Shown here one piece after another: positions 3,501 through 27,038 of a stretch of 64,000 nucleotides of DNA. The stretch is taken from assembly GCA_041499035.1 (NCBI GenBank), contig JBGQJK010000002.1:6571-70570 (forward strand), given 5' to 3'. A model generated the notes under the pieces. It worked only from the letters and a program-made list of their open reading frames with translations. It had not been told where the DNA came from and searched no databases. Numbering within the stretch: position 1 is the stretch's first letter; every line of letters starts with the position of its first letter. The position numbers were made by a program, and so were the translations under genes. This stretch comes from Patescibacteria group bacterium (GTDB lineage Bacteria; Patescibacteriota; Microgenomatia; UBA8517).

Positions 3501-3510
3501 TCGCTTAGTG

Positions 3511-3582: not shown

Positions 3583-3588
3583 TCATTT

Positions 3589-3663: not shown

Positions 3664-3667
3664 AAGT

Positions 3668-4246: not shown

Positions 4247-4273
4247 AACCTGCTATAATTGCAGTGCCTAAAA

Positions 4274-4361
4274 GGAGGATATGCCGAGCGGCTAAGGCAA
4301 AGGTTTGCTAAACCTTGGCCACGCAAGTGGCCGGTGGGTTCGACTCCCTCATCCTCCGCCA
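4274..4361 (+). tRNA. tRNA-Ser (anticodon GCT), CCA encoded
   Basis: GGAGGAT acceptor, D-arm GCCGAGCGGCTAAGGC, anticodon loop TTGCTAA, long variable arm, T-loop TTCGACT, 3' GCCA. Confidence 0.85.
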
Positions 4362-4362
4362 T

Positions 4363-4444
4363 GGTGGGCGGGCAGGACGGTAATGCGCGGGTCTTGAAAA
4401 CCCGTGAGCGCAAGCTCTAACAGGTTCGACCCCTGTGCCCACCG
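4363..4444 (+). tRNA. tRNA-Ser (anticodon TGA)
   Basis: Acceptor GGTGGGC/GCCCACC, anticodon arm CGGGT-CTTGAAA-ACCCG, long variable arm, T-loop TTCGACC. D-arm pairing is atypical. Confidence 0.65.
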
Positions 4445-4445
4445 C

Positions 4446-5126: not shown

Positions 5127-5578
5127 TGAGGTACAATATAAGTATGAAATTATTCAACAAAAGAGCAAGATTTGAATATGAACTCACAGGAGAGGGAGTT
5201 GAGGCCGGATTGTCCCTAAAGGGAGCCGAGGCTAAATCTATCCGCGAAGGCCGGGGGGATTTGTCCAATTCTTTCGCAAAAATCATGGGTAATGAAATTT
5301 ATTTGGTCAATGCCAACATCCCGGCACAAGGGCTGGAAAAATATGACTCTACCCGCACCAGAAAACTCCTTTTGCACCACCAGGAGATACTGTCGCTAGG
5401 AACAAAAATGAAGCAAAAAAAGTTGCAAATTGTGCCTCTACGGCTGTATAATAAGGGTCGCTTAATCAAGCTCTATCTAGAGCTAGGCAAGCCTAAAAAG
5501 CAGTTTCAGAAGAAGGAGGCAATTAAGCGCCACGATATAAAGCGAGATATTGAAGGTGAATTTAAAGCTTCGCTTTAA
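5126..5578 (+). CDS. smpB: SsrA-binding protein SmpB
   Basis: 'NKRARFEYELTGE...GAEAKSIREGR' SmpB signature; immediately upstream of the tmRNA gene. Confidence 0.85.
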   Translation: MRYNISMKLFNKRARFEYELTGEGVEAGLSLKGAEAKSIREGRGDLSNSFAKIMGNEIYLVNANIPAQGLEKYDSTRTRKLLLHHQEILSLGTKMKQKKLQIVPLRLYNKGRLIKLYLELGKPKKQFQKKEAIKRHDIKRDIEGEFKASL

Positions 5579-5581
5579 ATC

Positions 5582-5942
5582 GGGGACGATCGGTTTCGAC
5601 GGGAAGCTCTTTGACAAAACGGCAAGCAGACTTTGACTCTAGGTCTTTGATAAGAGTTAAAAAACAAAAGCTACGAATTTATTCGAAGCTCCAGCCTACA
5701 ACGTAGTTTACGCTTAAGCTGGCGTCCTGAGATCTGATTCTCGATCGGGTCGACTGGGTGTAAACCATTCGAGATGCTGTTTAAGCTTTAATGATTTAAA
5801 GGTTTAAACAAAAGACAAATAAATCTTACCTTGAAATTCCTTTTTGGCTAGATAAGTTCAGGGAAAATTTAAAAACCAAATAAGCTTGTAGAAGTTTTGT
5901 TATTATGTTTTTCGGACGCGGGTTCGATTCCCGCCGTCTCCA
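5582..5942 (+). ncRNA. ssrA: transfer-messenger RNA (tmRNA, ssrA)
   Basis: 5' GGGGACGATCGGTTTCGACGGG (tRNA-like acceptor/D region), 3' GGACGCGGGTTCGATTCCCGCCGTCTCCA (T-arm plus acceptor), internal tag ORF ending ...YNVVYA-TAA. Adjacent to smpB. Confidence 0.8.
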
Positions 5943-6339
5943 CTTAAAAAATAATATTAGTTCTGAACTCTCATTTCAAAATCGTATTTTTATGCACCCT
6001 GGTGCAGGTGGTATTTATGCTAACGAGGGACATAGTATGACAGTTAACGGCAACGGGAGTAGTAATTTTCAGGGAATCCATTTTCATCATTCAGAACCTC
6101 TAACGGTAATCAAGTCAACGGCACTGCTCAGATTAAAAGGATTAATTCGCGACAACGAATCGGTTGTCGAGTTAAGAAGTTGTGGAACAGATAACAGAGG
6201 CGTTGAGGGATTCGCCGCGCGGACAGATAAAATGTTCGACAGTTATGAGCCTCACGTGTCGTTAGGCGATCTCTTTGATTCGATAAACACACTTCGCAAT
6301 TCCTCACTTTGGCCGAAGAAATAAGTATCTCGAACAAGA

Positions 6340-8241: not shown

Positions 8242-8244
8242 TCT

Positions 8245-8466
8245 TTAAAGAATTATTAGAGCAGCCAGAAAAACTAAAACCGCAAAAGCTAAATGAATAT
8301 AGCCAAGCAGGATTATCGGAGCATCGAAACCAAGCGAGAGCGTGGATGTCATTAGTCTGATCTGCCGGACCATAATCAAAGCGAACACAAGATACATTGC
8401 CAAAAGCAGAAGAGCCGCGATTTTAATCACCAGCCAAATAGAAATTCCAAAAATAGGGTTGATCAT
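8245..8466 (-). CDS. small two-TM membrane protein
   Basis: Entirely hydrophobic 73 aa; translationally coupled (ATGA overlap) with the upstream gene. Confidence 0.4.
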   Translation of the reverse strand: MINPIFGISIWLVIKIAALLLLAMYLVFALIMVRQIRLMTSTLSLGFDAPIILLGYIHLAFAVLVFLAALIIL

Positions 8467-9131
8467 TTTCTTTTATCTTTTGTAATCAGATCCTCAATAA
8501 TTTTTGCCACCTTATCAGGATTTGGCACCGCTACGAAATCAAATTCGGCAACTTCCGCGGCAGTTTGAACAAAAACGTCCCCGTAATTAAAAATCGTCCT
8601 GGCAACCCCACCCATATTATATGTAACATCCTGAATTTTATCCAAGTTGGCGTCGGAAACCTCCTTATAAATTAAGTTGTAAAAATCGACGTCGACTACT
8701 CTCATATTTGTAACTATATAAACGTTAAAAAACCAGCTCAAAAAGTTTTCGAAAGCGTATGCCAATGTAATCAAATACCAGGCCATTGTGATAACCAATT
8801 CAAACCCGACCGGAAGAGATGAAAATACACCGAAGGCCGCCATAGTTGCCGGCACAAAAAGCAGCAGTATTGTAACCAAAATCCACTTAACATTAACTAT
8901 CAGGTGTTGCCTTAAAAGCAAAACTATTTTTTCTTCCTTAGAACGGGACTCAAAATCGATATGGTCGGGATAAAAGTAAAAGGCGGACAGGGGGCTATGG
9001 GTGTGTCCGGGGAGTTTAGACTTTTCAATCTCGGTCACTGGAGACTCTTCCGGCAAAACCGATGAGGCCGGCTCCTCAGGAGCTACTGGCTTTTGAGACT
9101 CATTTTTTGGAGAAACAAACACATCCGGCAT
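8463..9131 (-). CDS. membrane protein with bPH_2 (YdbS/YdbT-like) domain
   Basis: Two TM helices followed by 'YIVTNMRVVDVDFYNLIYKEV...GDVFVQTA', a bacterial PH-like pattern. Confidence 0.45.
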   Translation of the reverse strand: MPDVFVSPKNESQKPVAPEEPASSVLPEESPVTEIEKSKLPGHTHSPLSAFYFYPDHIDFESRSKEEKIVLLLRQHLIVNVKWILVTILLLFVPATMAAFGVFSSLPVGFELVITMAWYLITLAYAFENFLSWFFNVYIVTNMRVVDVDFYNLIYKEVSDANLDKIQDVTYNMGGVARTIFNYGDVFVQTAAEVAEFDFVAVPNPDKVAKIIEDLITKDKRK

Positions 9132-10993: not shown

Positions 10994-11076
10994 GGCAATC
11001 CATTATATCAAGTGAAACATAGAAGGGGTTTGTTATTTGGAGTCACAAAAGTTAGAATAAATATATATCTAGATAA

Positions 11077-11661
11077 ATGAAAAGAATAGTTTTGTTATTA
11101 GGTCTTTTTGGGTTAATTTTCTTTTTGCTTCCGTATAAAGTTTTGGCAGGTCCTCAATGCTCTACTAAAGGCGGAAGCTGCTCAACCGCATGCAGCATCA
11201 GCGATACCCCTTCAGGACCTTTAGACTGCCCAACCCAAAATGGAGGTAGAGGGGCACCCATTCAACAAGTTTGTTGTGTACCTCAGTCATCAGGCGGTGG
11301 TAGCAGTGGTGGATCTACTAGCGGCAGTTCTCCAGTAAATATACAAGGACGCTGCGCAATCACAGCAATCGATACAGCAATAGGCTGCATTCCTGTCTTA
11401 AACAGCGATAACGGAACGGCATTTATGGGCTTTATCCTTAGATGGGCCGTGGGCATCGGGGGCGGAATCGCTTTTCTTTTAATTCTTTACGGAGGCTTTA
11501 TGATAATGACTTCCTCGGGTAACCCTGAGCGACTTAAAGCGGGACAGGAACTTCTAACTTCGGCAATTGGAGGAATAATTCTTCTTATTTTCTCTGTATT
11601 CCTGCTTAAGGTTATTGGAATTGACATACTCGGTCTTGGATCTTATGGTTTCGGGAAGTAA
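11077..11661 (+). CDS. pilin-like two-TM protein fused to N-terminal Cys-rich secreted domain (paralog 1 of array)
   Basis: Signal peptide, 10 Cys in 'GPQCSTKGGSCSTACS...CCVPQ', Gly/Ser linker, then C-terminal 'GGFMIMTSSGNPERLKAGQELLTSAIGGIILLIF' matching the array motif. Confidence 0.5.
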   Translation: MKRIVLLLGLFGLIFFLLPYKVLAGPQCSTKGGSCSTACSISDTPSGPLDCPTQNGGRGAPIQQVCCVPQSSGGGSSGGSTSGSSPVNIQGRCAITAIDTAIGCIPVLNSDNGTAFMGFILRWAVGIGGGIAFLLILYGGFMIMTSSGNPERLKAGQELLTSAIGGIILLIFSVFLLKVIGIDILGLGSYGFGK

Positions 11662-11669
11662 AAATAGAC

Positions 11670-12005
11670 ATGTTATTGGCACAAAACTTAGACGCAATTC
11701 AAAGCGGAGGAATTCCAGGTTTTACAATCCCTAATGGCGGGCTTGCATCTTCCGGTGTTGGTACGCTAATTACATTATTAATCCCGTATATATTTGAGGC
11801 CGCGGCACTTTTACTTTTAATTTACTTCCTACTTGGGGGGTTACAGCTTATGACGTCGAGGGGAGACCCTAAAGGGATACAAGCTGCTCAGGGAAAAATT
11901 GTCAACGCTTTAATTGGTTTTGCAATTATTCTCCTCGCGGGCTTTGTAGTGCTACTATTAGGGAGATTATTAAGAATAAATGTTTTTACAGGATTAATCG
12001 TTTAA
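11670..12005 (+). CDS. pilin-like (VirB2/TrbC-like) small two-TM protein, paralog 2
   Basis: 'LLGGLQLMTSRGDPKGIQAAQGKIVNALIGFAIILLAGFVV' shares the conserved motif with its neighbours. Confidence 0.5.
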   Translation: MLLAQNLDAIQSGGIPGFTIPNGGLASSGVGTLITLLIPYIFEAAALLLLIYFLLGGLQLMTSRGDPKGIQAAQGKIVNALIGFAIILLAGFVVLLLGRLLRINVFTGLIV

Positions 12006-12010
12006 AAAAA

Positions 12011-12301
12011 ATGGATATAAATAGTATTTTTGGCTCTCCTCTTACCCAACTTACGAATGTGGCAGGGCTAGTTACCATTTTTTTAAACGCGATCTTTGTT
12101 ATTGCCGGTCTTATTCTACTTTTTTACTTTATTTTGGGGGGAATAGGAATGATAAATAGCGCCGGGAAAAACGACCCGCGGGCAGCGGAACAGGCGAAAC
12201 AGACTGTTACTTCGGCTCTTATTGGGTTTGTTGTTGTAATTGCTGCCTACTGGATAGTAAAATTAACAGGAACGCTTTTAGGGATTCAAAATTTAATATG
12301 A
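12011..12301 (+). CDS. pilin-like small two-TM protein, paralog 3
   Basis: 'ILGGIGMINSAGKNDPRAAEQAKQTVTSALIGFVVVIAAYWIV'. Confidence 0.5.
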   Translation: MDINSIFGSPLTQLTNVAGLVTIFLNAIFVIAGLILLFYFILGGIGMINSAGKNDPRAAEQAKQTVTSALIGFVVVIAAYWIVKLTGTLLGIQNLI

Positions 12302-12630
12302 CCAACCCATTCGGATCAGTAAAGATGCCTAATACCGCTCTTGGAACGGATCCTGGCTTAGCTATCGGAAAAATAGTCCAGCTTGTAATTTGGGTTTTAC
12401 TCATAAGTGCTGGTGTTTACGCACTTATTAATTTTATTTTAGCCGGCTATGCATTTATGTCTGCTGGGGATGATGCCAAAAAAATCGAGGGTGCCTGGGC
12501 AAAAATCTGGCAGACAGCACTTGGTCTGGCAGTTGCAGCTGGCGCCTTTGTGCTGGCTGCAATTTTTGGCCAGCTAATTTTTAACGATCCTACAATTCTT
12601 TTCAATCCAACTATCCCAGCCTTACCATAA
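12298..12630 (+). CDS. pilin-like small two-TM protein, paralog 4 (divergent)
   Basis: 'ILAGYAFMSAGDDAKKIEGAWAKIWQTALGLAVAAGAFVLA'; ATGA overlap with the previous gene. Confidence 0.45.
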   Translation: MTNPFGSVKMPNTALGTDPGLAIGKIVQLVIWVLLISAGVYALINFILAGYAFMSAGDDAKKIEGAWAKIWQTALGLAVAAGAFVLAAIFGQLIFNDPTILFNPTIPALP

Positions 12631-12635
12631 ATAGA

Positions 12636-13001
12636 ATGAAAAATTTATTATCGCAAGTCAGTTTTGGTACATTTAAGGGCATCGGATCTGGAAATCTATC
12701 TAATTCAACCGGTGGCATAGCAACCCTGGCCAGTTTTATTACATCTGTAATTGGTGTCATGACAATAGTTGCAGTTATCTGGTTTATTTTTGTGTTTATC
12801 ACCGGTGCAATCGGGATAATTGCAGCAGGAGGAGACAAAGGCGCTCTCGAGAATGCCAGAAAAAGGATCACTACAGGACTAATCGGTTTAGTGGTCGTCA
12901 TTATTGCAACTTTTGTGATTGATTTGATCGGATATTTGCTCGGCTTTCCTTCCAACGGAATTTTAAATATTGTTAACCTGTTTAATACTCTACCCAAATA
13001 A
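12636..13001 (+). CDS. pilin-like small two-TM protein, paralog 5
   Basis: 'ITGAIGIIAAGGDKGALENARKRITTGLIGLVVVIIATFVI'. Confidence 0.5.
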   Translation: MKNLLSQVSFGTFKGIGSGNLSNSTGGIATLASFITSVIGVMTIVAVIWFIFVFITGAIGIIAAGGDKGALENARKRITTGLIGLVVVIIATFVIDLIGYLLGFPSNGILNIVNLFNTLPK

Positions 13002-13005
13002 ATAA

Positions 13006-13323
13006 ATGATAAAAAATCCGGTACTAGGGGGCTTGGGTGCGACGGCCGGCATCACCTTTTTCCAAACATTCTTTGGTAAGCTTGTAGCGGTTGCCCTTAT
13101 AGCAGGATCCGTAATTTTTCTTTTTATGCTGATTACTGGGGCAATACAGTGGATTTCTTCCGGTGGCGACAAGCAGGCACTTGAAAATGCAAAAAGCAAG
13201 GTGACAAACGCGATCGTCGGAATTATAATTCTGTTCGCTATTTTTGCAGTAATAAATTTTGTCAGCTCTTTCTTTGGAAATATCCCAATATTAAACGCGC
13301 CTCTAAATCCCGTTACCCCTTGA
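13006..13323 (+). CDS. pilin-like small two-TM protein, paralog 6
   Basis: 'ITGAIQWISSGGDKQALENAKSKVTNAIVGIIILFAIFAVI'. Confidence 0.5.
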   Translation: MIKNPVLGGLGATAGITFFQTFFGKLVAVALIAGSVIFLFMLITGAIQWISSGGDKQALENAKSKVTNAIVGIIILFAIFAVINFVSSFFGNIPILNAPLNPVTP

Positions 13324-13362
13324 CACGGCGTTTTAAAAAGGCCAATAATATAAAATACAGAT

Positions 13363-13701
13363 ATGGGGAACTCTCTGCTCGCGCAAATAAACTTAAAGCC
13401 GGATGCTAATTCGGGCTTCAGTAACCTGGGAGGCTATACTTTACCCGGAATTATATCCGCTCTTATAAAAGGGGCGTTGGTTGTGGCAGCAATAGTTTTC
13501 TTCTTTATACTCGTCCTCGGCGGAATAAAATGGATTGCGTCGGGTGGCGATAAAGCGGCAACAGAGGGTGCAAGAAATCAAATTACGGCGGCCCTAATCG
13601 GCCTTGTAATAGTCTTTGCTGCTTGGGCAATAGTTTCCTTAATCAATACTTTCTTTAACGTAAACATTTTCTCCTTGACACTTCCTCAAGTTAGCGGTTA
13701 A
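13363..13701 (+). CDS. pilin-like small two-TM protein, paralog 7
   Basis: 'VLGGIKWIASGGDKAATEGARNQITAALIGLVIVFAAWAIV'. Confidence 0.5.
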   Translation: MGNSLLAQINLKPDANSGFSNLGGYTLPGIISALIKGALVVAAIVFFFILVLGGIKWIASGGDKAATEGARNQITAALIGLVIVFAAWAIVSLINTFFNVNIFSLTLPQVSG

Positions 13702-13746
13702 AACGGGCTTGCTCAATCTTGCCCCCTAGTCTAGAATTGTCTTTAT

Positions 13747-14022
13747 ATGGACCCTGCGCGTATAACTGACCTCCAAACAGTCTTTGTTAATGTGGTAAAG
13801 GTTGCTATTGCTGCAGCCGGAATAGCTTTGTTTGTCATGCTTCTTATTGGTGGATTTAAATATATAACCTCGGGTGGGGATCCTAAGGCAACTGAGGGCG
13901 CGCAAAGAACTATCACTTATGCAATCGGCGGACTAGTCCTTATTCTTGCGGCCTACTTAATACTTTTACTCATACGAACCATAACAGGGGCTCAAGTGAC
14001 CAACTTTACCGTGGTCCAATAA
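13747..14022 (+). CDS. pilin-like small two-TM protein, paralog 8
   Basis: 'LIGGFKYITSGGDPKATEGAQRTITYAIGGLVLILAAYLIL'. Confidence 0.5.
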   Translation: MDPARITDLQTVFVNVVKVAIAAAGIALFVMLLIGGFKYITSGGDPKATEGAQRTITYAIGGLVLILAAYLILLLIRTITGAQVTNFTVVQ

Positions 14023-14042: not shown

Positions 14043-16571
14043 ATGAAACGCTTTCTGCCCATTTTCGCAACCCTCTTCGGGCTTTCCTTTTTTTTTCCAA
14101 AAGCTTCAAAAGCCCAATACACACCTTTAAACGATGTCCCAATCCCCCAGATTCACTTTCCCTGTGACAAACAAACTCAACCCGAATTTGCTTCTTTAAG
14201 ACCTTACCAGGCAGCAGCCTGCGGAGACGCTGACAAAGCACTCTACTGCAGCAACGATCTTATATTCCTGGAGACTTTTAACAGCTTTCCGGAATGTGGA
14301 GGCCAAGCGCCCGCAGGGGAGGGAAAATTTATTTGCAACACAAATAAATTTATTCCAAACCATAATTTAATTGTAGATTTGGCCAATAGCGATCTCCCCA
14401 TCCTTGGAAATACCGAGTTAACTAAGGACAGCATCAACTCGACCGATAAAATTAGTGATGCGGGAAAAATGAATGAGTATGCAAGCTGGTACCTTAACGG
14501 AACTCTTAATAGAGCGGAGTACGGACAAATTGACCCTACCCAGATTGCCGATTATTCGGGACCAATTCAAAAAGTCATGCCCCAAGTAATTCTTGAGGCC
14601 GATAGAATAGGCACAATCGCCTCAGCTTCAGCAATGACAACATATATTCCGGAAAATGACAACGGCGGTACTGCGGCCCCACAAGCCACTACTGAGCCCC
14701 AAAACCATAACCAGATAGTTGTTTGCTATAAGAAACAGGCCCAACTTATTCCGCCCATCATCACAAATTTTTTTGGGCTTGGAGCAGTAGGGCTAGGCAA
14801 GGCACTTCCCGGGGATTGTTACGATGGGGCTGGTCACATGACAGATGGGCTAAGCATACTGAGACTTGAAAGTTGGGATAAATCCAGTCCTACTGTTGAT
14901 GTTGCCGGCATTGCCAGCTGGCTTCTTAAAATTTTTCCTCCGAATATTGTGTCTATACTTACAAGTAGCACTGCCATCCTCGATCGCTGGCCATATAAAT
15001 TTCCCCCTCTCCCTTGGTCGGATAAAAACGGTCAGCCTTTTTCTAGTCCGGACGCATATCAAAAGGCTTATAACGAATGGCGGGGGCAACTCTGTGCTTA
15101 TATTTCATTCCCAATACTGGGAACCAAGTTATTTTGTGGCGGAATTCCGGGCGTAACAAATAATGATTTTGCAGACCTTTTTCCCTTTATTCCCCTCGGG
15201 AACACTGTTGATAAACACGGCTCCGAAACCGCATATATAGCGGAAATTCAGCCACTGGGAGAGACCCAGATTGCTGACCCTTCGTACGATGTACCAAAAA
15301 ATGCTCCCCTTTGGTTCTCACACACCGAAGAAGTAATGAACATGTCAAAGTTCTTAAACTCCAGTTATACCCCCCTCGACTGCACAGTAACTAACGGTAA
15401 ACAAACCTGTCAGCCACTTGCCAGTGTAGCGGAACCTAAAACTACGGAGGCGAATGTCTGCAACGTAGTAAATGTAAGAACAAATTCGGGAGATAACCTC
15501 TTCCCCGGCCAAACACATGGAGTCGTGGTCCCCAATGTTCACTACACGATCACACAAGTCCCGTGCGAGAAAAAAATAGTAATACAGACGATCGGAAAAC
15601 CCCCTAATGAAAAAACAGTAAGACGAACCGTTATCACTTGCGATGCCGAAATAAATATAACAATCCCCACAATTACAAAGAGTCCATCACTTGACCCGAT
15701 ATTCCAAAGCACGGTTGCTTATTCCGGGTCTACATTCAGGAAGATCTATCCCAAAGTGGAAACGGGTGCCCCTGTAAATTGTATTGCGGATATTCCGGGT
15801 TCAACCGGAGTTGATTACACGGGAACAGATAACGTACCCGCGGGTGGAAACAGCTCGTTTAAATATAAAAATCCTGCGCTAGGTTCAAACAATGCCTCCG
15901 AACTATATTTTCCACACCTCGGTTCAGTCTATGACTACTTTCTTAAAGGCATTCAAACCGCTCTACGCCCGCAAGGATTCGGAGCCCCAACACCAATAAG
16001 CGGAAAGTACTGCAGTCCGACAGTACCAACCCAGTGCAATGCCAACGTCCCCGATTCAGCCGTCTCCAGCAAATTTCTTGGCGCTTTCAAAACCAACTTT
16101 ATACTCGTTGCCGACAGGTGGACTCTTGACTGCCCCGGGCCGCAATACAATTTGGCTGCTCAATGTTACAACTACGTTGTCAGCGAGGCCCAGAAAGCCG
16201 GTGTTAATCCTGCGTTTGCTTTGTCTATTTGGCTTCATGAATCAGATGCAAGCAACTATTGTCATGGCGGCCTCTCTACTCAGGATTTTGGACAAAATGT
16301 TGCCAGCGAGTATCAAAATATAGTTGCTCAGTTAACTGGATTCTTGGCTATGGCAAAGCAAAAGCTCTGCAACGGCGTTCCGGGATTCCCTGAACCCATG
16401 GCCGGTTGGCTAAGTAGATATAAAAGTAGTTCCGGTTCATGTAATCCGGCAGACTCTGATGCAATGAGCTATTACCCTGAAATTCGGGATACATCCTGGG
16501 GAGTGCTAACTAATTGTGTGAAAGGTACCAAATTCGGAATTACCTGGCCCACCGATATGAGTTGTCCCTAA
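14043..16571 (+). CDS. large secreted Cys-rich protein (842 aa), possible lysozyme-like C-terminal region
   Basis: Signal peptide 'MKRFLPIFATLFGLSFFFPKASKA', >30 Cys. C-terminal 'YNYVVSEAQKAGVNPAFALSIWLHESDASNY' resembles the catalytic E-S region of lysozyme-like/SLT folds; this is weak. Confidence 0.45.
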   Translation: MKRFLPIFATLFGLSFFFPKASKAQYTPLNDVPIPQIHFPCDKQTQPEFASLRPYQAAACGDADKALYCSNDLIFLETFNSFPECGGQAPAGEGKFICNTNKFIPNHNLIVDLANSDLPILGNTELTKDSINSTDKISDAGKMNEYASWYLNGTLNRAEYGQIDPTQIADYSGPIQKVMPQVILEADRIGTIASASAMTTYIPENDNGGTAAPQATTEPQNHNQIVVCYKKQAQLIPPIITNFFGLGAVGLGKALPGDCYDGAGHMTDGLSILRLESWDKSSPTVDVAGIASWLLKIFPPNIVSILTSSTAILDRWPYKFPPLPWSDKNGQPFSSPDAYQKAYNEWRGQLCAYISFPILGTKLFCGGIPGVTNNDFADLFPFIPLGNTVDKHGSETAYIAEIQPLGETQIADPSYDVPKNAPLWFSHTEEVMNMSKFLNSSYTPLDCTVTNGKQTCQPLASVAEPKTTEANVCNVVNVRTNSGDNLFPGQTHGVVVPNVHYTITQVPCEKKIVIQTIGKPPNEKTVRRTVITCDAEINITIPTITKSPSLDPIFQSTVAYSGSTFRKIYPKVETGAPVNCIADIPGSTGVDYTGTDNVPAGGNSSFKYKNPALGSNNASELYFPHLGSVYDYFLKGIQTALRPQGFGAPTPISGKYCSPTVPTQCNANVPDSAVSSKFLGAFKTNFILVADRWTLDCPGPQYNLAAQCYNYVVSEAQKAGVNPAFALSIWLHESDASNYCHGGLSTQDFGQNVASEYQNIVAQLTGFLAMAKQKLCNGVPGFPEPMAGWLSRYKSSSGSCNPADSDAMSYYPEIRDTSWGVLTNCVKGTKFGITWPTDMSCP

Positions 16572-16619
16572 AGGTAAAGGGCCTTTGATTTTTTACGTCA
16601 AACCATTAGAATAAACATA

Positions 16620-18185
16620 ATGTCCAAGCCGCTCAAAAAAATTGTATTTTCTTTTTTAACTGCACTCGTCCTTCTTTTTTCTTTTGCTCCATTTTTTAGA
16701 GCAAAAGCTGCAATCCCACCGGGAGGAATAAATGTCGGCATTGACCCAAGTAATCTTTGGAGTCATACGTGGTATGCCGAGGAGAATCCGTTTGCCTGGT
16801 ATCAAAAAGTTTACGACGATTCTATATCCCCAACCAGCGAGATTTTTGGAGAACGCTATACGGCCGCACAAGTCCAGTGGGTTATTTACGGGCTTTTCTC
16901 CTTCTTCTGGAACTTTATACCTGGAAACCCGCAACTGACAACCTGCGCTATTAGCGGGGATATCAGCAGCTGCCAAACCTTGCTTCAAAAACTCCAAAGT
17001 GCTATCAAAATAGGTGATAGTAGCGGGCCGACGCCGGCATCAACTACGGCATCTATATTTACTTTTGCTGGCCAGAATCCGATTTCAGGAGTTTATTATT
17101 TTAAAAACCTGATCGGGAAATTTTCCCTAATATCCGAGGTTCACGCCCAGGGGTTTGGCTACACAAACGCAGCAAATTCAATTGTAGGTATTTGGAGAGT
17201 TACCAGAAATATTAGCTACGGCTTTATGGTATTGGCCATAATCATTTTTGCTTTTATGATTATGTTTAGAGTAAAAATCAATCCCCAGGTAGTTATTACA
17301 GTTCAACTCGCAATACCGAGACTGGTATTCGCATTAATCCTCATTACTTTTTCATATGCAATCGCAGGGTTCGCGATCGATTTAATGTATGTAACAATCG
17401 GGCTTTTAGCAGTATTAATAAACGGGGCTCAGTTAACAAGCGAGACACCTATCCAGCTGTTCCAAAACTTTGTCTCGAGCAATAGTTTTGTATTATTATA
17501 TAACTACTGGATACATTTATTGGTCGCAAGTATTGTTGCCACGGTTTCGCCCGGTGGAGGATTCGGGCTTGGAATTCTTCTTGTCCTATTCGCAATAATT
17601 GCTATTCTTGCAGTTATATGGTGGTCCCTCAAAATTGTTTGGATGGTAATTAAAACGTTTGTGTCAATTATTCTGACGATCGTCGTTGGACCGTTAGAAA
17701 TAATGCTCGGGACAGTCACTGAATCTACAGGTTTTGGCGCGTGGCTTAAAAGACTGATATCTTATTTGGCGGTTTATCCTATGATGTGTTTAATGTTTTT
17801 TCTGGCATTTTTCTTCCTCAATCAGGGCGGGGACACAGCCGGATTCGGAGGGACAATTCCGTTTAACCCGGCAACAAATTTCATAGGTCCTAATTCGTGG
17901 GTTCCGCCTATGTCATTTTTAACGGGAAACGGACAAAGGTTAATATGGATTCTTGTAAGCTTTGTTATTTTCAGCGAGATAACAAAAGTCGCAGAAATGG
18001 CACAAAAATTTATTGAGGGTAAGCCGTGGGAGTATGGAACTGCTGTTGGAGAAGTGAGACAGGGTGCAAAGAACGTTGGTCAGTCCGCAACCGACTTCGC
18101 AAGACTATATGCCTCCACTAAGGCTATCGGAGGAACTGCACAAGGAGTAGTCAACGCTCTAAAGTGGCTAGCATTTATGCCGTAG
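16620..18185 (+). CDS. VirB6/TrbL-like polytopic membrane protein (type IV secretion inner-membrane component)
   Basis: Signal/TM, ~150-aa extracytoplasmic N-domain, then 6-8 TM helices rich in aromatic and Gly residues. Its position upstream of a VirB4-like ATPase fits VirB6/TrbL architecture. Confidence 0.5.
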   Translation: MSKPLKKIVFSFLTALVLLFSFAPFFRAKAAIPPGGINVGIDPSNLWSHTWYAEENPFAWYQKVYDDSISPTSEIFGERYTAAQVQWVIYGLFSFFWNFIPGNPQLTTCAISGDISSCQTLLQKLQSAIKIGDSSGPTPASTTASIFTFAGQNPISGVYYFKNLIGKFSLISEVHAQGFGYTNAANSIVGIWRVTRNISYGFMVLAIIIFAFMIMFRVKINPQVVITVQLAIPRLVFALILITFSYAIAGFAIDLMYVTIGLLAVLINGAQLTSETPIQLFQNFVSSNSFVLLYNYWIHLLVASIVATVSPGGGFGLGILLVLFAIIAILAVIWWSLKIVWMVIKTFVSIILTIVVGPLEIMLGTVTESTGFGAWLKRLISYLAVYPMMCLMFFLAFFFLNQGGDTAGFGGTIPFNPATNFIGPNSWVPPMSFLTGNGQRLIWILVSFVIFSEITKVAEMAQKFIEGKPWEYGTAVGEVRQGAKNVGQSATDFARLYASTKAIGGTAQGVVNALKWLAFMP

Positions 18186-20583: not shown

Positions 20584-21627
20584 ATGGAACAGCACGCAAT
20601 ACCACAAAATGTATCTTCATACCAATTTAAATTGGTTGGAGATATGACGCTTAAACAGTTCTTTCAACTTGCGGGGGGTATTTTGGCCGGCATAATTTTT
20701 TATTCGTCCCCGCTTCTCGGCATAATCAAATGGCCGCTCGCAATTTTATCGGTACTACTTGGAATCGGACTTGCGTTTCTCCCTCTTGAGGAGCGTCCTT
20801 TGGAAAAATGGATCTTCGCTTTCTTTAAAGCAATCTACGCGCCTACTATTTTTTCCTGGCAAAAAGGCGCCACACGCCCAAAGTTTTATCAGGACGAAAC
20901 CCCTACAGCTTCCAACCCCGAACAGGACGCGGCTCTTAAAACTTATTTGGCAACGACTTCTCAAACTTCCACAGCCTTAGGAAATCTGGAAAAGGCGGAG
21001 AGCGGGTTTCTTGCCCAACTCACCGGGCTCTTTTCCCTGGGCCAGGGTACCACCCCCGCGCCCGCCCCCGTAGCGCCCCCGGTAGCCGCGCCGCCAAAGC
21101 CGGCGGTTGTACCGATTCCGGAAAACTCGCCGGTAAAAATTCCGGCAGCACCAACTCACCTGATCGTTGAAGAGAAGTTGATACCCGTAGTTCCCCAAAA
21201 CCAAGTCACCACAAACCAGGTTGTTGGGATTATTGCAGGCAACGAAATGATCTCGACCAAACAGGCAATGTTTTCTGTAGACGCAGCTCCACCCAATCCC
21301 CCCACCTCACCCAATGTAGTGGTAGGCCAGGTCGTAGACCAGGACAGAAAAATCATAGAGGGAGCAATTATGGAAATTAAAGACTCAATGGGACGCCCAA
21401 TAAGGGCCCTCAGAAGCAACAAGGTGGGACACTTCATTACGGTTACCCAACTTGATAACGGAAGATATGAAATTGTTACCGAAAAAGACGGCTATGAATT
21501 TACCCCGGTCTCGTTTGACGCAAACGGCAATCTTATTCCGCCAATTTTGGTTCAAGGAAAAAGGTTGGCACCTGAAGTAGAAGAGGCGCCCCCGGCAATA
21601 GTCAAACCGGCTTACTCAATCAATTAA
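20584..21627 (+). CDS. membrane protein with Pro-rich linker and C-terminal carboxypeptidase-regulatory-like (transthyretin-fold) domain
   Basis: Two N-terminal TM helices, 'PAPAPVAPPVAAPPKPAVVPIP' linker, and 'VVGQVVDQDRKIIEGAIMEIKDSMGRPI...DNGRYEIVTEKDGYEF' resembling the CarbopepD_reg/Cna-B pattern. Confidence 0.4.
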   Translation: MEQHAIPQNVSSYQFKLVGDMTLKQFFQLAGGILAGIIFYSSPLLGIIKWPLAILSVLLGIGLAFLPLEERPLEKWIFAFFKAIYAPTIFSWQKGATRPKFYQDETPTASNPEQDAALKTYLATTSQTSTALGNLEKAESGFLAQLTGLFSLGQGTTPAPAPVAPPVAAPPKPAVVPIPENSPVKIPAAPTHLIVEEKLIPVVPQNQVTTNQVVGIIAGNEMISTKQAMFSVDAAPPNPPTSPNVVVGQVVDQDRKIIEGAIMEIKDSMGRPIRALRSNKVGHFITVTQLDNGRYEIVTEKDGYEFTPVSFDANGNLIPPILVQGKRLAPEVEEAPPAIVKPAYSIN

Positions 21628-21631
21628 TAAT

Positions 21632-22324
21632 ATGTTAAATATTCCAAAAATACCTTACTTATCGGTTCCGGATAAGCCAATCACTTCGACGACTCAAAAT
21701 CACCTGCCTATCGCCGACGTAACAAACGATGTTGCTCTTTATAAGGACGGTGGGGCCGCCCTTGTCATGGAGTCAACTTCCTTAAACTTTGGGCTTCTTA
21801 GTGAAAAGGAACAACAGGCAGTGATAGCCGCATATGCGGCCATGATTAACTCTCTTTCTTTCTCGGTCCAGATAATAGTTAAGACACAGCGAAAAGATAT
21901 TAGCTCCTATATCAGCTACATTGACCAGCAGGCCAAAAAACTTACCCACCCTCTTCTTCAAAAATTGATGGCGGAATACCGCGGATTCATTATGGACTCG
22001 GTTAAAAAGAAAAACGTCTTGGGAAAGCGGTTTTTTGTTGTACTTTACCTTTCCCCCCTTGAACTTGGCGTCGGAAAATCAATAGCGGCAGTAACCAAAA
22101 GGGGCGAAATGCTTCCTTTTACAAAATCGTATGTCGTAAAAAAGACAAAAATAGTTCTCTACCCCCGGCGAGACCACCTGATGCGGCAGGCGGGGCGCCT
22201 CGGAATTAAATTTAGACAACTTACGACTGCCGAACTTATTGATCTTTTCTATTTGGTTTATAACCCGGAACGTCCAGCAGTTAAAAAAGAACCTGAGGTT
22301 ATATTAGAACATAAGCAGCAATGA
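21632..22324 (+). CDS. hypothetical protein; start codon overlaps the stop of the VirB4-like gene's upstream neighbour (translationally coupled)
   Basis: ORF ends in ATGA overlap with the VirB4-like gene; no motif I recognise. Confidence 0.35.
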   Translation: MLNIPKIPYLSVPDKPITSTTQNHLPIADVTNDVALYKDGGAALVMESTSLNFGLLSEKEQQAVIAAYAAMINSLSFSVQIIVKTQRKDISSYISYIDQQAKKLTHPLLQKLMAEYRGFIMDSVKKKNVLGKRFFVVLYLSPLELGVGKSIAAVTKRGEMLPFTKSYVVKKTKIVLYPRRDHLMRQAGRLGIKFRQLTTAELIDLFYLVYNPERPAVKKEPEVILEHKQQ

Positions 22325-24186
22325 AGATACAAGTTCCCGTTAATCAAGTTCCACCTCCGGCGCCCGCTGCAAGTCTTCTTGTTGTGGACAATCACACTTC
22401 AACCCCAGTCATCAAAACTCAGGAACTAAAACCAAAGATGGAAAGCCCCGCTGCAAGTGTGGCTCAAGGAGCAAGTGTTCTTGATATTATTGCCCCCCAG
22501 GCGATCGAAGAAGATTTTGATTTTTTTAAAATCAACGATGTATATTTCCGGACCATTTTTGTGGGCGGTTACCCCAGATTTGTGGCCCCGGGGTGGCTTG
22601 AGCCGGTTGTAAACTTTGATTCAAGCCTTGATATATCTTTCTATGTTTACCCCGTGGACGGAAAAAGCGTTCTCGATGATTTACGGCGCAAAATTGCGGA
22701 GATGGAGGCGGAAATTTCAACAGATATAGAACGCGGCAGAATCGTTGACCCTTCAACCCAAGCCAAACTTGAAGACGCAAGGAGTCTGCAGGAACAACTT
22801 GTCAAAGGCATTGAAAGATTCTACGAATTCAGCTTTTATATAACCATTCCCGCAAACACCGTTGAGGAGCTTAACCACGTGACCAAACAAATTGAGTCCC
22901 AACTCGGCTCACTTTTAATTGTCAGTAAACACGCCCTACTCGACCAGGAAGCCGGTTTTCTTTCAACCGCCCCGTTTGGGATGGACAGACTAAATATAAC
23001 GAGAAATATGGACACAACCTCTGTTGCTACAACTTTTCCTTTAACTTCAACGGAACTTTCAAGTGACCGTGGTGTTCTTTACGGAATAAACTCACAAAAC
23101 GAGTCTTTTATTATTTTCGACCGGTTTTCCCTTGAAAACGCAAACATGACCATTTTTGCTACCTCCGGCGCCGGAAAATCCTACTTTGTTAAGTTGGAAG
23201 CCCTAAGGTCACTTATGATTGGAACGGAAGCTATAATAATTGACCCAGAAAGCGAATATAAACCCTTGGCCCAAGCCGTAGGTGGAGAATATATTTCATT
23301 TAATTTTAATTCCCCTGCTAAAATCAACCCTTTTGACCTTTCTCAAGTCCGTGAAGAGGGCGAAAACCAGCTGGGGCAAAAAATTCTTTCGCTCCATTCA
23401 CTAATGAAAGTTATTATGGGAGTAATCACCCCGACCCAGGAGGCACTCCTCGACAGGGCTCTCGTTATGACCTACCGAAACAAAGGAATAACTATGGACC
23501 CCGACACACAATCTAGGGAACCCCCTCTTATGGAAGACTTGTATAAAACTTTAATCGGCATGGAGGTTCCCGACGCACTGGATCTTTCCGCCCGCATCGA
23601 AAAATTTGTCCGCGGGAGCTTCGTTGGAATTTTTGACAAGCAAACAAATATAAATATAACAAATCCTTTTACCGTTTTTTCGGTCAAAGACCTGCAGGAT
23701 GCCCTGCGTCCCATCGCCATGTTTATAATTCTTGACTATATTTGGACGCGCGTTAAGAAAGACTTAAAGAGAAGGATTCTGATAATTGATGAGGCCTGGC
23801 ACATGATGCGCTATCCCGACACTGCGCAGTTTCTTTGGAGTGTGGTTAAGAGGGCCCGTAAATACTTCCTGGGACTCACTACAGTAACGCAGGACGTCGA
23901 AGACTTCCTGGCGCAAGATATTGGTAAGGCAATCATTACAAACAGCTCCATGGAGGTTCTCCTAAAGCAATCCCCCGCGGCAATTGACAAAATCGGAGAA
24001 GTGTTTTATTTAAGCCAGGGAGAAAAACAACTACTTTTGGCCGCAAATGTCGGCGAAGGAATATTTTTTGCCGGACCCCACCATGCACCAATAAGAGTCG
24101 TGGCTTCCGAGGATGAAAACATCTTAATTACAACCAAGCCCCAGGAAATTGCGAAAGTAAACCCAAATCAATATGAAGCAAAATAA
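22321..24186 (+). CDS. VirB4/TraC-family type IV secretion ATPase
   Basis: Walker A 'FATSGAGKSYFVK', Walker B 'RILIIDEAWHMM' (the DEAW box typical of the VirB4/CagE/TrbE family), ~620 aa. Confidence 0.75.
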   Translation: MKIQVPVNQVPPPAPAASLLVVDNHTSTPVIKTQELKPKMESPAASVAQGASVLDIIAPQAIEEDFDFFKINDVYFRTIFVGGYPRFVAPGWLEPVVNFDSSLDISFYVYPVDGKSVLDDLRRKIAEMEAEISTDIERGRIVDPSTQAKLEDARSLQEQLVKGIERFYEFSFYITIPANTVEELNHVTKQIESQLGSLLIVSKHALLDQEAGFLSTAPFGMDRLNITRNMDTTSVATTFPLTSTELSSDRGVLYGINSQNESFIIFDRFSLENANMTIFATSGAGKSYFVKLEALRSLMIGTEAIIIDPESEYKPLAQAVGGEYISFNFNSPAKINPFDLSQVREEGENQLGQKILSLHSLMKVIMGVITPTQEALLDRALVMTYRNKGITMDPDTQSREPPLMEDLYKTLIGMEVPDALDLSARIEKFVRGSFVGIFDKQTNINITNPFTVFSVKDLQDALRPIAMFIILDYIWTRVKKDLKRRILIIDEAWHMMRYPDTAQFLWSVVKRARKYFLGLTTVTQDVEDFLAQDIGKAIITNSSMEVLLKQSPAAIDKIGEVFYLSQGEKQLLLAANVGEGIFFAGPHHAPIRVVASEDENILITTKPQEIAKVNPNQYEAK

Positions 24187-24188
24187 TT

Positions 24189-27038
24189 ATGGCCGCTATA
24201 GAAGTTCCTAATATTGATCTAAAAACAGCTAAGGCTCTTAGAAAGGCTTTTGGTTATTTCTATTCTGACGTAGATCCCGAAAAGACCGAAGCATTAAGAA
24301 AGGCTTTTGGTTATTTCGGTGATCTAGAAAAAAACGCTCCTGATATTAAAGAGCCTGTCGATTTTAAAGATCCGGATACAGGAATTGCCTTCAAAACGTC
24401 TGCCGACTTTAGAGCCGAATTAAAAAAACTTGGACTTCCGGAAGGCACACCGGTTAAAAACATCGGGATTGAGGTTGAGAGGTGGTATGAAACGCTCCAA
24501 CGGGGCGAGACAACAATGGCCGGGGCTCCGGAACCCGAAAACGCTGCAAATGTACCTAATGCAGGACTCCGGGAAGCCCAAAAAATAGAATACGAACAGC
24601 GACTGGCTGCAAAAATGGCCGCTGATGAAAATGCCAAGGCTGACGTTGAAAGAATGATTAAGAGATATAAAGACCGAACTATAACGGTAGTGCCAAAGGA
24701 TCTCCAAACTCTTACTTTAGATCCGAACCAAAAAATGACTATTTATAGGTACGCTCAAGCTGCAGCTTCTGACCCGGGAATAACACAGGAGGAAGTTGCA
24801 AATATTATGCGGGGTGCAATCCCTGAAGAGCTAAGGGATAGTATCCCCGAACAAGCTATTCAAAATACGGCGCGGGGTTTTGTCGAGAAGGCGCGGGGTT
24901 TTGCCGAATATAAAACGGCTGAAGAGATTCCAACCGAAACTACAATTATGAATCCAGCCGGACCGCCGGCCGCTCTCAATGATCCTAACAATAAAGTTTT
25001 TCAGGAAATAATTCCTGAAGAGGAAGTGAGAGTGGCCCTTGCATCAGATGCCCAGGTTATATCTTATGCATTTGCAGCAAGATACGACACGGAGACAACA
25101 TTAACGGCGCCACTTTTCGGTGGAGATACTACGCTCACATGGTCATTTTATGGTCCGCCATCTACGGAGTTTGAGCCGGTAAAAGGTGAAAACAAAAATG
25201 GTATTAAACTCAACCTTAGCGTAATTCACGAAGCCGGAAGCGATGTAAAAGAGTTTGTTGCCAAAGTGCCCAAGCTAGGAGTTTCCGGGGAGGGAAGAGA
25301 AGTTGCTTCAACAGGCATTGTCCCGACCAGGGTTCCCTATCAATATACGGGCGACGAAGCTCTCGCCAAGCGGGCCCAAGGTTTCTTGCAGAAGGAAAGA
25401 TTCGGAAGATTTAGGGGGTTCAACACTCAAGGCGAATACGCTAAATACGTTACGCGTATTTCCAAAACCTCAGAATTGTCCAGAGATGTCCCCGTTACCC
25501 CTGGCGTTATGGCGGGTTCAACAGATGGTGCTGTAAGGATACTGTTTACACAAATGGCCTTAAAAAAGGCCCCTCTTTTACTCGTACCGAAAGTAACAGA
25601 AGCTATAATTAAGGGTGGTTTCCAAACCACTGCTTTAGCATCACTCGCTACTGAAGGTCGGGTTATATATTTTGCAGGGCTTGGGAAATACTCATTTAAC
25701 ATTGTCAACCTTTCCGGGGCATCCTCTGAACTCTATATAGCTGGTCTAAACTTCGGGAACAGGGCTTTCGGACTAGGTCTTGCAAAAACCGGAGGAAAGG
25801 TTGTGGCCACCGGAATAATCACAAAAGGCGCCACAGGTCAAATAACAACCCGAGCCCTCCCCGCCCTTTTTTCAAAAGTTGGCTCTTGGCTCGGTTCAAT
25901 TGCCCCTATCATTGGCAATATCCTGGGAGCGATATCTGGCTGGATATTCGGAAAGGTACTTGACAAAATCCCCTGGAAAAAAGTTAAAGAATGGTCTGCC
26001 GCAATTCTCGGAACCGCGGCCGCAATAATTTCCTTACCCTTTGTAGGCTTGGCGGCAGCGTTAGGAATAGGTGGGGCTACAACTGTAATTTCTGCGCTTT
26101 TTGGTGGCGGCCTTGGAGGATTAACTTTAGGCGGGGTTGGAGCTAGTGTGGGAGGGTTTCTTGGCGCTCTTATTCTCACAACACTAGGCAACATCGCGGG
26201 ATGGCTTTTTGTAGTATTTATTTCCTTCTCATTAATGGTCACTCTAATTCTTTTTATAATTAATGCAGGCGCTTATGTAGTTCCCCAAATTCCTGAGGTT
26301 GCGACGGGCGCTGTAGGACGAACGGGTGTTAACGTGGTATGTTCAACCGATAAAGGCCCAGTGGGTGTCAGCGGGCCAACGTCCTCTTCTCCTATCGCAA
26401 ACCGCGCATGGGAAATCGTATTTGATCTTTACCAAGGTTTTTGGTGCTTTTGGAATAGATCTCCCAGCAACGTTCCTTGGAATGGCCCCCCCAGACCTGA
26501 TTTTCCCAATGACATCGTCAAATATCCACCAAACTACCCGCAGCCAATATATTTTGACTATAATCTTTACGCAGTAAACAAAAACCCTTCAGAAAAAAGC
26601 GGACCGGACCTTTTTTGGTGTACAGACCTGGTTATCAAGGCATATCAAGAAACCGGCCACAACATCCCACCAGACCTGGGGGTCGCCGAAATGCACGCAC
26701 ACTGGCCTGTAAACAAAATTATTGCCGCAAAAGACGCAACGCCTCAAAATATAGTTCCGGGAAGCGCAGTTTTCTTCAGAGTAACTTCCGGTGATTTCGC
26801 AAACCAGTTAAATCATGTGGGAATTGTCTACTCTGTAGACCTCGCGGGAATTACCGTTGTCGAATCAAATAATGCCGTTAAAAGCGAAAGAATAACTTTT
26901 ACATTTACTACGGCAGGATCCTGTACGCCTTTGTGTCTCAAAAATGCGACTTTCCAGGAATGCGGCTGTTATGGTCAAGTAAATGGCGTGGCGAACCTTC
27001 CCGGAATGCTGGTGGATTCTTTTGGATTACCATACTAA
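24189..27038 (+). CDS. T4SS-associated cell-wall hydrolase-like protein: N-terminal repeat domain, Gly-rich multi-TM region, C-terminal CHAP/NlpC-P60 domain
   Basis: C-terminus 'FWCTDLVIKAYQETGH...HVGIVYSV...VVESN' has the Cys...His...polar pattern of CHAP/NlpC-P60 peptidases. Mid-region 'GGGLGGLTLGGVGASVGGFLGALIL' TM helices. Tandem 'ALRKAFGYF' repeats at the N-terminus. Confidence 0.55.
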   Translation: MAAIEVPNIDLKTAKALRKAFGYFYSDVDPEKTEALRKAFGYFGDLEKNAPDIKEPVDFKDPDTGIAFKTSADFRAELKKLGLPEGTPVKNIGIEVERWYETLQRGETTMAGAPEPENAANVPNAGLREAQKIEYEQRLAAKMAADENAKADVERMIKRYKDRTITVVPKDLQTLTLDPNQKMTIYRYAQAAASDPGITQEEVANIMRGAIPEELRDSIPEQAIQNTARGFVEKARGFAEYKTAEEIPTETTIMNPAGPPAALNDPNNKVFQEIIPEEEVRVALASDAQVISYAFAARYDTETTLTAPLFGGDTTLTWSFYGPPSTEFEPVKGENKNGIKLNLSVIHEAGSDVKEFVAKVPKLGVSGEGREVASTGIVPTRVPYQYTGDEALAKRAQGFLQKERFGRFRGFNTQGEYAKYVTRISKTSELSRDVPVTPGVMAGSTDGAVRILFTQMALKKAPLLLVPKVTEAIIKGGFQTTALASLATEGRVIYFAGLGKYSFNIVNLSGASSELYIAGLNFGNRAFGLGLAKTGGKVVATGIITKGATGQITTRALPALFSKVGSWLGSIAPIIGNILGAISGWIFGKVLDKIPWKKVKEWSAAILGTAAAIISLPFVGLAAALGIGGATTVISALFGGGLGGLTLGGVGASVGGFLGALILTTLGNIAGWLFVVFISFSLMVTLILFIINAGAYVVPQIPEVATGAVGRTGVNVVCSTDKGPVGVSGPTSSSPIANRAWEIVFDLYQGFWCFWNRSPSNVPWNGPPRPDFPNDIVKYPPNYPQPIYFDYNLYAVNKNPSEKSGPDLFWCTDLVIKAYQETGHNIPPDLGVAEMHAHWPVNKIIAAKDATPQNIVPGSAVFFRVTSGDFANQLNHVGIVYSVDLAGITVVESNNAVKSERITFTFTTAGSCTPLCLKNATFQECGCYGQVNGVANLPGMLVDSFGLPY

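Follow-up and report, generated by a model that had tools for sequence, protein, structure and literature searches.

In a 64,000-nucleotide stretch of the genome of a Patescibacteria group bacterium (assembly GCA_041499035.1, contig JBGQJK010000002.1, positions 6,571 to 70,570 of the forward strand; hereafter, the window), we analyzed the gene at 11077..11661 (+), here named pilin-1, which encodes a 194-amino-acid (aa) protein and is the first of an array of eight genes of the T4SS_pilin family. The gene joins a small cysteine-rich domain, here called the head, to a pilin core, and this fusion is real and intact. The architecture of pilin-1 and its assignment to the pilin family can be taken with high confidence, and the head is probably beta-defensin-like in its predicted fold. 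Taken as a whole, the explanation that we favor, with somewhat more belief than doubt, is that pilin-1 is a type IV secretion system (T4SS) pilin that displays a beta-defensin-like recognition head; for the displayed-recognition function by itself, our confidence falls slightly short of even.

The open reading frame (ORF) is uninterrupted and its product starts with a Sec-type signal peptide (aa 1-24, 11077..11148), a feature that a first-pass annotation of the sequence had already claimed. By inspection and hydropathy, the peptide consists of MKR, a 17-residue hydrophobic stretch and the predicted cleavage site VLA-GPQ, with recognizable n-, h-, and c-regions (MKR, IVLLLGLFGLIFFLL, and PYKVLA-G) and small residues at -3 and -1; the hydropathy maximum of the protein lies at aa 1-27, and AlphaFold2 models a helix at aa 2-17. 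The head module comes next (aa 25-70, 11149..11286), with six cysteines in the order C28-x6-C35-x3-C39-x11-C51-x14-C66C67, and then a flexible Gly/Ser-rich linker (aa 71-88, 11287..11340), in which the Gly/Ser stretch SSGGGSSGGSTSGSS, also noticed in the first-pass annotation, covers aa 71-85 and the predicted local distance difference test (pLDDT) score falls below 50 at aa 74-82. The pilin core begins with a segment (11341..11415) that carries Cys93, Cys104, the motif IDTAIGCIPV, and a predicted beta-hairpin at aa 97-106 (AlphaFold2 strands at aa 97-100 and 103-106). Two transmembrane or pilin helices follow, helix 1 (aa 114-145, 11416..11511) and helix 2 (aa 150-184, 11524..11628), whose limits are those of AlphaFold2 (pLDDT about 80) and which are also marked by hydropathy (aa 116-149 and 156-191) and by the PF18895 match described below; between them AlphaFold2 places the short loop SSGN, followed by PERLKAGQE (11512..11523). 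A short tail, LGLGSYGFGK, predicted to be extracytoplasmic, and the stop codon end the gene (11629..11661). All these features lie on the + strand. The first-pass annotation had given the ectodomain 10 cysteines and about 100 aa, and both figures have to be corrected: pilin-1 has 8 cysteines (28, 35, 39, 51, 66, 67, 93, and 104), six of them in the N-terminal module and two, Cys93 and Cys104, in the conserved loop of the pilin core itself, and the cysteine-rich module takes up about 45 aa of a mature extracytoplasmic part of about 90 aa (25-113).

The core was recognized as a pilin by several searches. PF18895 (T4SS_pilin), a family that the first-pass annotation had not named, matches aa 118-180 with 28.1 bits (gathering cut-off 26.6, E=2.2e-6), and the core shows the helical hairpin of this family, two hydrophobic helices with a short polar loop. 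The alignment of the C-terminus with the downstream paralogs, as originally proposed, was significant: a hidden Markov model built from paralogs 2-8 alone scored it at 28.4 bits, compared to a maximum of 12.1 in 2000 composition-matched shuffles, and BLASTP against paralog 8 gave E=1.2e-9. A loss of this significance in a profile alignment, or a frameshift or assembly join between the two parts, had been named as grounds for giving up the idea, and neither was found. The seven paralogs (11670-12005, 12011-12301, 12298-12630, 12636-13001, 13006-13323, 13363-13701, and 13747-14022, all +) are 9-27% identical to pilin-1 and have neither cysteines nor a signal peptide; PF18895 recognizes six of these paralogs, and in four the score exceeds the threshold. 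Paralog 4 (12298-12630), whose start overlaps the preceding gene by 4 nt, is the sole array member with no PF18895 match at E<=0.1, yet it aligns with the others, and an identity of 63-67% in its orthologs marks it as a true, conserved part of the array that the Pfam model overlooks.

Database searches returned 1502 relatives of pilin-1, and a scan of species-representative genomes placed relatives in 119 species-level genomes titled Woesebacteria, Microgenomates, Patescibacteria, or Blackburnbacteria. Automated ORF extraction from 80 genome loci gave some wrong starts and missed motifs, and these loci are used qualitatively only. Many of the third-party-annotation metagenome-assembled genome (MAG) records holding relatives are titled "uncultured Gammaproteobacteria bacterium" (L012, L018, L022, L025, and about 30 more of the genome_contigs loci), one is titled Alphaproteobacteria and one Bathyarchaeia, all with typical Patescibacteria pilin-1 loci; this odd taxonomy is probably a placeholder or erroneous. 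Between genomes, the identity of the pilin-1 core is typically 60-80% and at most 84%, with many of the best matches reaching 70-84% over the core segment alone and full-length matches 39-60%. The orthologs inspected share the signal peptide, irrespective of whether a head is present, a Cys-x(~10)-Cys loop with (I/L)(D/N)TAIGC(I/V)P as the motif at its end, the two helices, and a conserved FGFG(K) tail. A cysteine stands upstream of the IDTAIGCIPV motif in every ortholog inspected; A101, G103, and C104 are invariant in 51 orthologs, and residues 148-158 are nearly invariant. Five relatives (P0002, P0011, P0021, P0049, and P0053) have an extra cysteine pair in the C-terminal tail (e.g., ...GLCNFGFGTCS), absent from the window protein, which suggests a further extracytoplasmic disulfide in those orthologs.

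The variable part of the group is the segment between the signal peptide and the Cys loop. Among the best 120 of the 1502 matches, 40 lack additional cysteines (e.g., P0020 in locus L005, a 135-aa form that consists of signal peptide, Cys loop, and core), 46 have exactly six, in several unrelated frameworks, and about 21 have two or more modules with up to about 19 extra cysteines; the framework of the window protein occurs in 16 of the 120. For the other head types, no Pfam family was matched beyond the pilin domain. Across these alignments, the head is a cassette inserted between signal peptide and core. The first-pass annotation had called the gene a chimera, which is right insofar as a cysteine-rich domain is fused to a pilin module, and the orthologous fusions that it suggested looking for turned out to be numerous and syntenic; the fusion is, however, no one-off event but one state of a variable cassette in a large ortholog group, which has the signal peptide and the Cys93/Cys104 loop as features of its own.

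Pilin-1 is the first array member not only in the window, as initially reported, but in all five loci examined, where it always follows a divergent SpoIID-domain gene and where 7-8 further pilin genes and a constant pair of large genes come after it. All eight window pilins (11077-14022) have collinear 1:1 orthologs in four other genomes (L004:8001-10909, L005:8001-10859, L006:8001-11133, and L007:4541-8114), with 46-81% identity; the best-conserved positions are the pilin-1 core (81% over 103 aa in the head-less L005 ortholog) and pilin 7 (69-78%). In L007, a ninth pilin member of 171 aa stands at position 6. Because every position has its collinear ortholog, the sequence comparison indicates that the eight array genes are an old, fixed set, not recent variants, and a recent local duplication or variant array was ruled out at these levels of identity.

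The likeness of the head to beta-defensins, which the first-pass annotation had not named, emerged from both structure and sequence. An alignment of 20 modules shows six invariant cysteines and one nearly invariant glycine, with the consensus AGPxC-xxxGGxC-xTxC-xxxExxxGxxDC-...-CCxP. A disulfide-rich fold had been put forward for checking with AlphaFold, and AlphaFold2 indeed predicts for the head a short N-terminal helix and a three-stranded antiparallel sheet, the arrangement of the beta-defensin fold, with a mean pLDDT of 80.9 for the head alone and 81-92 in the full-length model. The best structural and sequence-profile matches of the head are beta-defensins, big defensins, and crotamine; the proteins that stand beside the structure prediction are hBD2, hBD6, oyster big defensin, crotamine, AvBD11, gallin, platypus DLP, and sea-anemone Hact-4. 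When the 20-sequence profile was compared with 177,635 Protein Data Bank (PDB) sequences, all five matches at E<=10 were defensins (crotamine E=5e-4, CpoBD13 E=4e-3), with the six cysteines and the GG-x-C and G-K-x-DC motifs all aligned. A profile of 72 sequences gave crotamine at E=6.8e-7, and 24 of its 25 PDB matches at E<=10 have the beta-defensin fold.

Pfam searches of the related modules pointed to the same families. The syntenic ortholog P0064 (L007) passes Defensin_beta (PF00711) as a whole protein (23.8 bits, cut-off 21) and reaches 29.4 bits (E=8e-7) when the module is scored alone; Defensin_beta_2 (PF13841) is matched below threshold by six of the 20 modules, the best at 21.6 against 22.2 bits. 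A search of 1.84 billion representative sequences with the module profile returned, among its matches, two porcelain-crab proteins annotated as beta-defensin polyproteins, one of which matches Defensin_beta_2 at E=9e-17. These proteins (P0121 and P0133) are from Petrolisthes cinctipes, and the top match is a 2051-aa protein in which the profile matched 33 stretches of tandem beta-defensin-like units, a tandem defensin polyprotein architecture of which we knew no example beforehand. In profile-profile comparison with hhalign, the prokaryotic module matched the crab units at 96% probability, the crab units, PDB segments, and mammalian peptides combined at 93%, and five mammalian peptides alone at 45.7%; in none of the three sets did any of 150 column-permuted nulls reach the observed score. 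As a negative control, the profile of a different six-cysteine head type gave no defensin match. A homolog search with the 72-sequence profile among 8 candidates was uninformative, its one match, P0139, being itself in the profile; P0139 lies on a sparsely coded, probably eukaryotic contig.

Several observations weigh against this likeness. For the isolated module, four of five AlphaFold2 models reach a pLDDT of only 60-67, and AlphaFold2 may be reproducing a memorized fold from the cysteine pattern. For the window module itself, the Pfam search gave no match at all, even at E<=10. Beta-defensins have the framework C-x(4-8)-C-x(3-5)-C-x(9-13)-C-x(4-7)-CC, and four of the five spacings of the window module (C-x6-C-x3-C-x11-C-x14-CC) fit it, but the C4-C5 loop has 14 residues compared to the canonical 4-7; the relatives P0012 and P0016 have x5-x11 in this loop. 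The net charge is 0 for the window module and -0.5 on average for the 20 modules, while the defensin segments have +8 (crotamine), +4 (CpoBD13), and +5 (hBD106); the head thus lacks the cationic charge of antimicrobial beta-defensins, and a reading as a cationic antimicrobial peptide is disfavored. In a domain so small, cysteine spacing carries most of the signal, and the likeness could be convergent or an artefact of that spacing, with the head a generic disulfide-knotted stabilizer or spacer unrelated to defensins. The dominance of six cysteines and one glycine, the missing Pfam match, the longer loop, the neutral charge, and the low value for mammalian peptides alone would all agree with convergence, as would the view that defensin-like frameworks have arisen convergently more than once. 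This alternative seems to us rather unlikely, although it is the strongest of those considered here.

Outside pilin-1, the module was found on more distant T4SS_pilin proteins (P0122, P0134-P0136, P0143, P0149, and P0151), on dockerin proteins (including P0127 of Ca. Shapirobacteria, and P0130), on the GLUG-repeat protein P0144, in nine tandem copies N-terminal to the GH25 muramidase P0128 (taxon unassigned), on small proteins with an N-terminal hydrophobic anchor, and in an 817-aa cysteine-rich protein from a MAG of Ca. Aenigmarchaeota, a DPANN archaeon (P0123/P0158). The gene context of P0145, with its module behind a hydrophobic N-terminal anchor, contained no informative neighbors; the N-termini of P0142, P0145, and P0146 may resemble those of archaeal pilins. 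From this distribution, the six-cysteine module appears mobile among surface proteins. Homology of the head to animal beta-defensins is plausible. In the literature, cis- and trans-defensins are treated as evolutionarily unrelated groups, and trans-defensins are placed only in animals, in vertebrates and some invertebrates (PMC11561630). A further-reaching proposal, that the beta-defensin domain has genuine prokaryotic homologs and is in bacteria of the candidate phyla radiation (CPR) and in DPANN archaea a mobile extracellular module, mounted on pilins and surface proteins as an exchangeable host-recognition head, we put forward only tentatively, as one that we believe less than we doubt.

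The array belongs to a locus with the genes of a secretion system. Upstream, a sigma-70-like promoter match (TTGTTA-17-TAGAAT, 11030..11058, +; 9/12 positions, a weak match to the consensus only) ends 19 bp before the start codon of pilin-1, in an 83-bp divergent intergenic region shared with the SpoIID-domain gene. Downstream, an 842-aa secreted protein and a 521-aa polytopic membrane protein are encoded at 14043..18185 (+), both conserved and syntenic in L001-L007; the latter is predicted to be VirB6-like, by position and hydrophobicity only. Then follow genes for a PrgI/VirB3-like protein (20584-21627, +), a TraC-like protein (21632-22324, +), a VirB4-type ATPase (TraG P-loop/AAA_10; 22321-24186, +), and a CHAP-domain protein of 949 aa (24189-27038, +), with a precomputed PF26593 match among these core T4SS genes (20584..27038). 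With a VirB4 and other components near the array, the pilin-1 locus is a monoderm-type T4SS of Woesebacteria/Microgenomates (Patescibacteria). No relaxase or coupling protein was found among the window ORFs scanned, and no VirB5 homolog was identified in the locus. T4SSs of Patescibacteria with arrays of 2-11 VirB2-like pilin genes, especially in Microgenomatia, were published in 2023-2025 (PMC12102498, PMC10633639, PMC12857230), and the T4SS and the pilin array themselves are thus already known.

We infer that pilin-1, as the first of eight anciently diverged VirB2-like pilins of this monoderm-type T4SS, would be exported by Sec and its signal peptide cut after Ala24. The mature N-terminus would lie outside the cell, because the signal peptide is cleavable and the predicted disulfides need an oxidizing compartment, with helix 1 running inward, the conserved loop SSGNPERLKAGQE in the cytoplasm, and helix 2 running outward. 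The exposed part would comprise the 45-residue disulfide-rich beta-defensin-like head, about 20 flexible Gly/Ser residues, and a disulfide-stapled hairpin at the start of the core. In F and T pili of known structure, the subunit has its termini on the exterior and its loop directed toward the lumen. If the core polymerizes in the same way as VirB2/TraA, its loop would by analogy pass from the cytoplasm in the membrane form to the lumen in the filament, and the head would be placed on the filament exterior; if the core does not polymerize, the head would be placed at the cell surface. The head would be dispensable for assembly, because the core is near-invariant and the head is absent, replaced, or multiplied in orthologs, and it would most likely serve as a lineage-specific ligand-binding module for host recognition or adhesion; a cationic membrane-disrupting role is unlikely because the head is electrically neutral. 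The suggestion of the first-pass annotation that the protein is an adhesin or tip subunit is compatible with a hypervariable extracytoplasmic head on a conserved core. Its other suggestion, a minor pilin, is unsupported: pilin-1 is encoded first and its core is among the two best conserved of the eight, traits that, if they indicate anything, would better suit a principal subunit.

The displayed, filament-borne part of this explanation also has points against it. The full-length model of pilin-1 has no significant Foldseek match in the PDB, the best being 8dfu, the Aeropyrum pernix conjugation pilus, at E=0.68 in a search where helical hairpins are non-discriminating; no pilus of a PF18895 protein has been visualized; the head has no known binding partner; and it is possible that the head is a plain stabilizing or spacer domain or a released peptide. 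Pilin-1 and its seven paralogs might instead stay in the membrane as part of the T4SS channel or as a platform, with the head tethered at the cell surface by the two-helix anchor. Gram-positive-type T4SSs are described as generally without pili (PMC12102498, PMC10633639). No solved pilus subunit gave a significant structural match, and a set of eight distinct subunits, each conserved individually, looks more like a fixed hetero-oligomer than like a filament built from one repeated subunit. The core is, however, a member of Pfam T4SS_pilin with a VirB2-like helical hairpin, its top fold match, though non-significant, is a conjugation pilus, and the same literature regards such arrays as predicted pilins and reports them as essential in Southlakia epibionticum (PMC10633639, PMC12857230). 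We therefore judge the membrane platform to be unlikely.

Still less probable, in our view, is that the head acts as a defensin-type effector, released or presented on the filament, which attacks the host envelope (e.g., by binding lipid II or the membrane) for access to resources. The beta-defensin-like fold and sequence signature would suit such a role, the nine tandem copies on the GH25 muramidase P0128 link the module to cell-wall targeting, and Patescibacteria live as episymbionts that need their T4SS to grow on hosts. Against this role, the net charge is about 0, where antimicrobial beta-defensins have +4 to +8. In addition, since about one in three orthologs is head-less and many have unrelated heads, no single effector activity is conserved, and no processing site is evident between head and core. 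Finally, an assembly, frameshift, or gene-calling artefact that joined the gene of a cysteine-rich secreted peptide to a pilin gene can be dismissed, since the ORF is continuous, the identical 194-aa protein occurs with the same neighbors in a Joint Genome Institute (JGI) metagenome, the NCBI MAG GCA_041496805.1, and a Logan assembly of a Sequence Read Archive (SRA) run, three independently produced assemblies, the parts follow one another in identical order in dozens of full-length orthologs, and third-position GC is alike in head (0.35) and core (0.40).

Returning to the T4SS pilin with a displayed head, its components resemble several known systems. With the VirB2/TrbC/TraA family (PF04956), pilin-1 shares a signal or leader peptide, two hydrophobic helices, a short polar loop, and a T4SS locus, although PF04956 gave no significant match for pilin-1; here, in contrast, the host is a monoderm, the subunits are eight and not one, and canonical pilins lack the N-terminal disulfide-rich domain of about 45 aa and its linker. 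Two-domain fimbrial adhesins such as FimH combine a lectin domain with a pilin domain, and VirB5 is a tip protein of T4SSs. The logic of a conserved polymerization module with a variable binding module that sets target specificity would be the same in pilin-1, but the folds and assembly pathways are unrelated and nothing in pilin-1 indicates localization at a tip.

On the side of the head, beta-defensins, big defensins, and crotamine (trans-defensin superfamily; PF00711, PF13841, PF14862, and PF00819) share with it the C-x6-C-x3-C-x11-C-...-CC framework, the GG-x-C and G-x-x-C signature residues, and the predicted short helix and three-stranded sheet, and big defensins likewise pair a hydrophobic domain with the defensin domain. 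In contrast to these trans-defensins, the head is prokaryotic, neutral, and below every Pfam threshold, has a C4-C5 loop of 14 residues, and is fused N-terminal to a membrane or pilin hairpin instead of being a free secreted peptide. Laterosporulin is a precedent for a bacterial defensin-like peptide, and it is free, secreted, and fused to no pilin. Another precedent is given by xanthusin and actifensin, which are bacterially encoded disulfide-rich defensin-like peptides but are also free and secreted, with no pilin attached, and have the CS-alpha-beta (cis) fold, not the beta-defensin (trans) framework (PMC11561630).

The closest known systems are the VirB2-like arrays of Patescibacteria (Wang et al. 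2023, PMC10633639; Quinonero-Coronel et al. 2025, PMC12102498). As far as their accessible text describes them, they have in common with the window the PF18895 family, tandem divergent pilins beside VirB4, VirB3/PrgI, and VirB6-like genes in Microgenomatia, and a comparable divergence, the identities to pilin-1 being in line with a reported mean paralog identity of about 25% (PMC12102498). That text describes no N-terminal cysteine-rich head, no pilin-1 group, and no per-position 1:1 orthology, and it proposes antigenic or host-range variation among the paralogs, whereas here the paralogs are individually conserved and it is the head of pilin-1 that varies. In the literature covered by our search, to which most subscription journals do not belong, we found no earlier description of a defensin in connection with Patescibacteria, CPR, or pilins. 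Compared with what could be searched, the pilin-1 ortholog group with its exchangeable cysteine-rich head, the 1:1 orthology of all eight array positions, and a beta-defensin-like module family in CPR bacteria and DPANN archaea appear to be new.

Some further features of the neighborhood were recorded. Two large ORFs have no Pfam match, that of the 842-aa protein (14043-16571, +, with a signal peptide) and one of 761 aa (18193-20478, -); both are syntenic with the pilin array in all related loci, and the 842-aa protein is only 30-34% identical between genomes, much less conserved than the pilins. A block of three genes (window 6340-9131, -) lies upstream of the SpoIID-domain gene: a DUF5657 protein (73 aa, 8245-8466, -) has on one side a protein of 633 aa, for which Pfam gives nothing, and on the other a protein of 222 aa, for which it gives only a bacterial PH domain slightly under threshold. 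This block is kept beside the array in relatives, with DUF5657 not called in L005, and may belong to the same functional neighborhood. Farther upstream, a tmRNA gene (5582-5945, 143.7 bits, tag peptide ATNLFEAPAYNVVYA) stands directly after an ORF in the position of SmpB (5126-5578), a mechanically called ORF (5905-6324) overlaps the 3' end of the tmRNA, and paired tRNA-Ser/tRNA-Arg genes are clustered at 2164-4445.

According to the published work, the one member of the Patescibacteria that is amenable to genetics cannot live epibiotically without the T4SS and its pilin array (PMC10633639, PMC12857230). The individual orthology of the eight positions argues against simple antigenic variation among the paralogs and suggests a fixed hetero-oligomeric assembly. 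A conserved core with an exchangeable disulfide-rich head offers a testable handle on host recognition, as the type of head could be correlated with host range and expressed heads could be used as probes for ligands on host surfaces. A prokaryotic family of beta-defensin-like domains bears directly on the origin of beta-defensins. If the prokaryotic homology is true, the fold would either predate animals or have moved between animals and these microbes, and the T4SS filament of Patescibacteria would be a modular host-targeting device.

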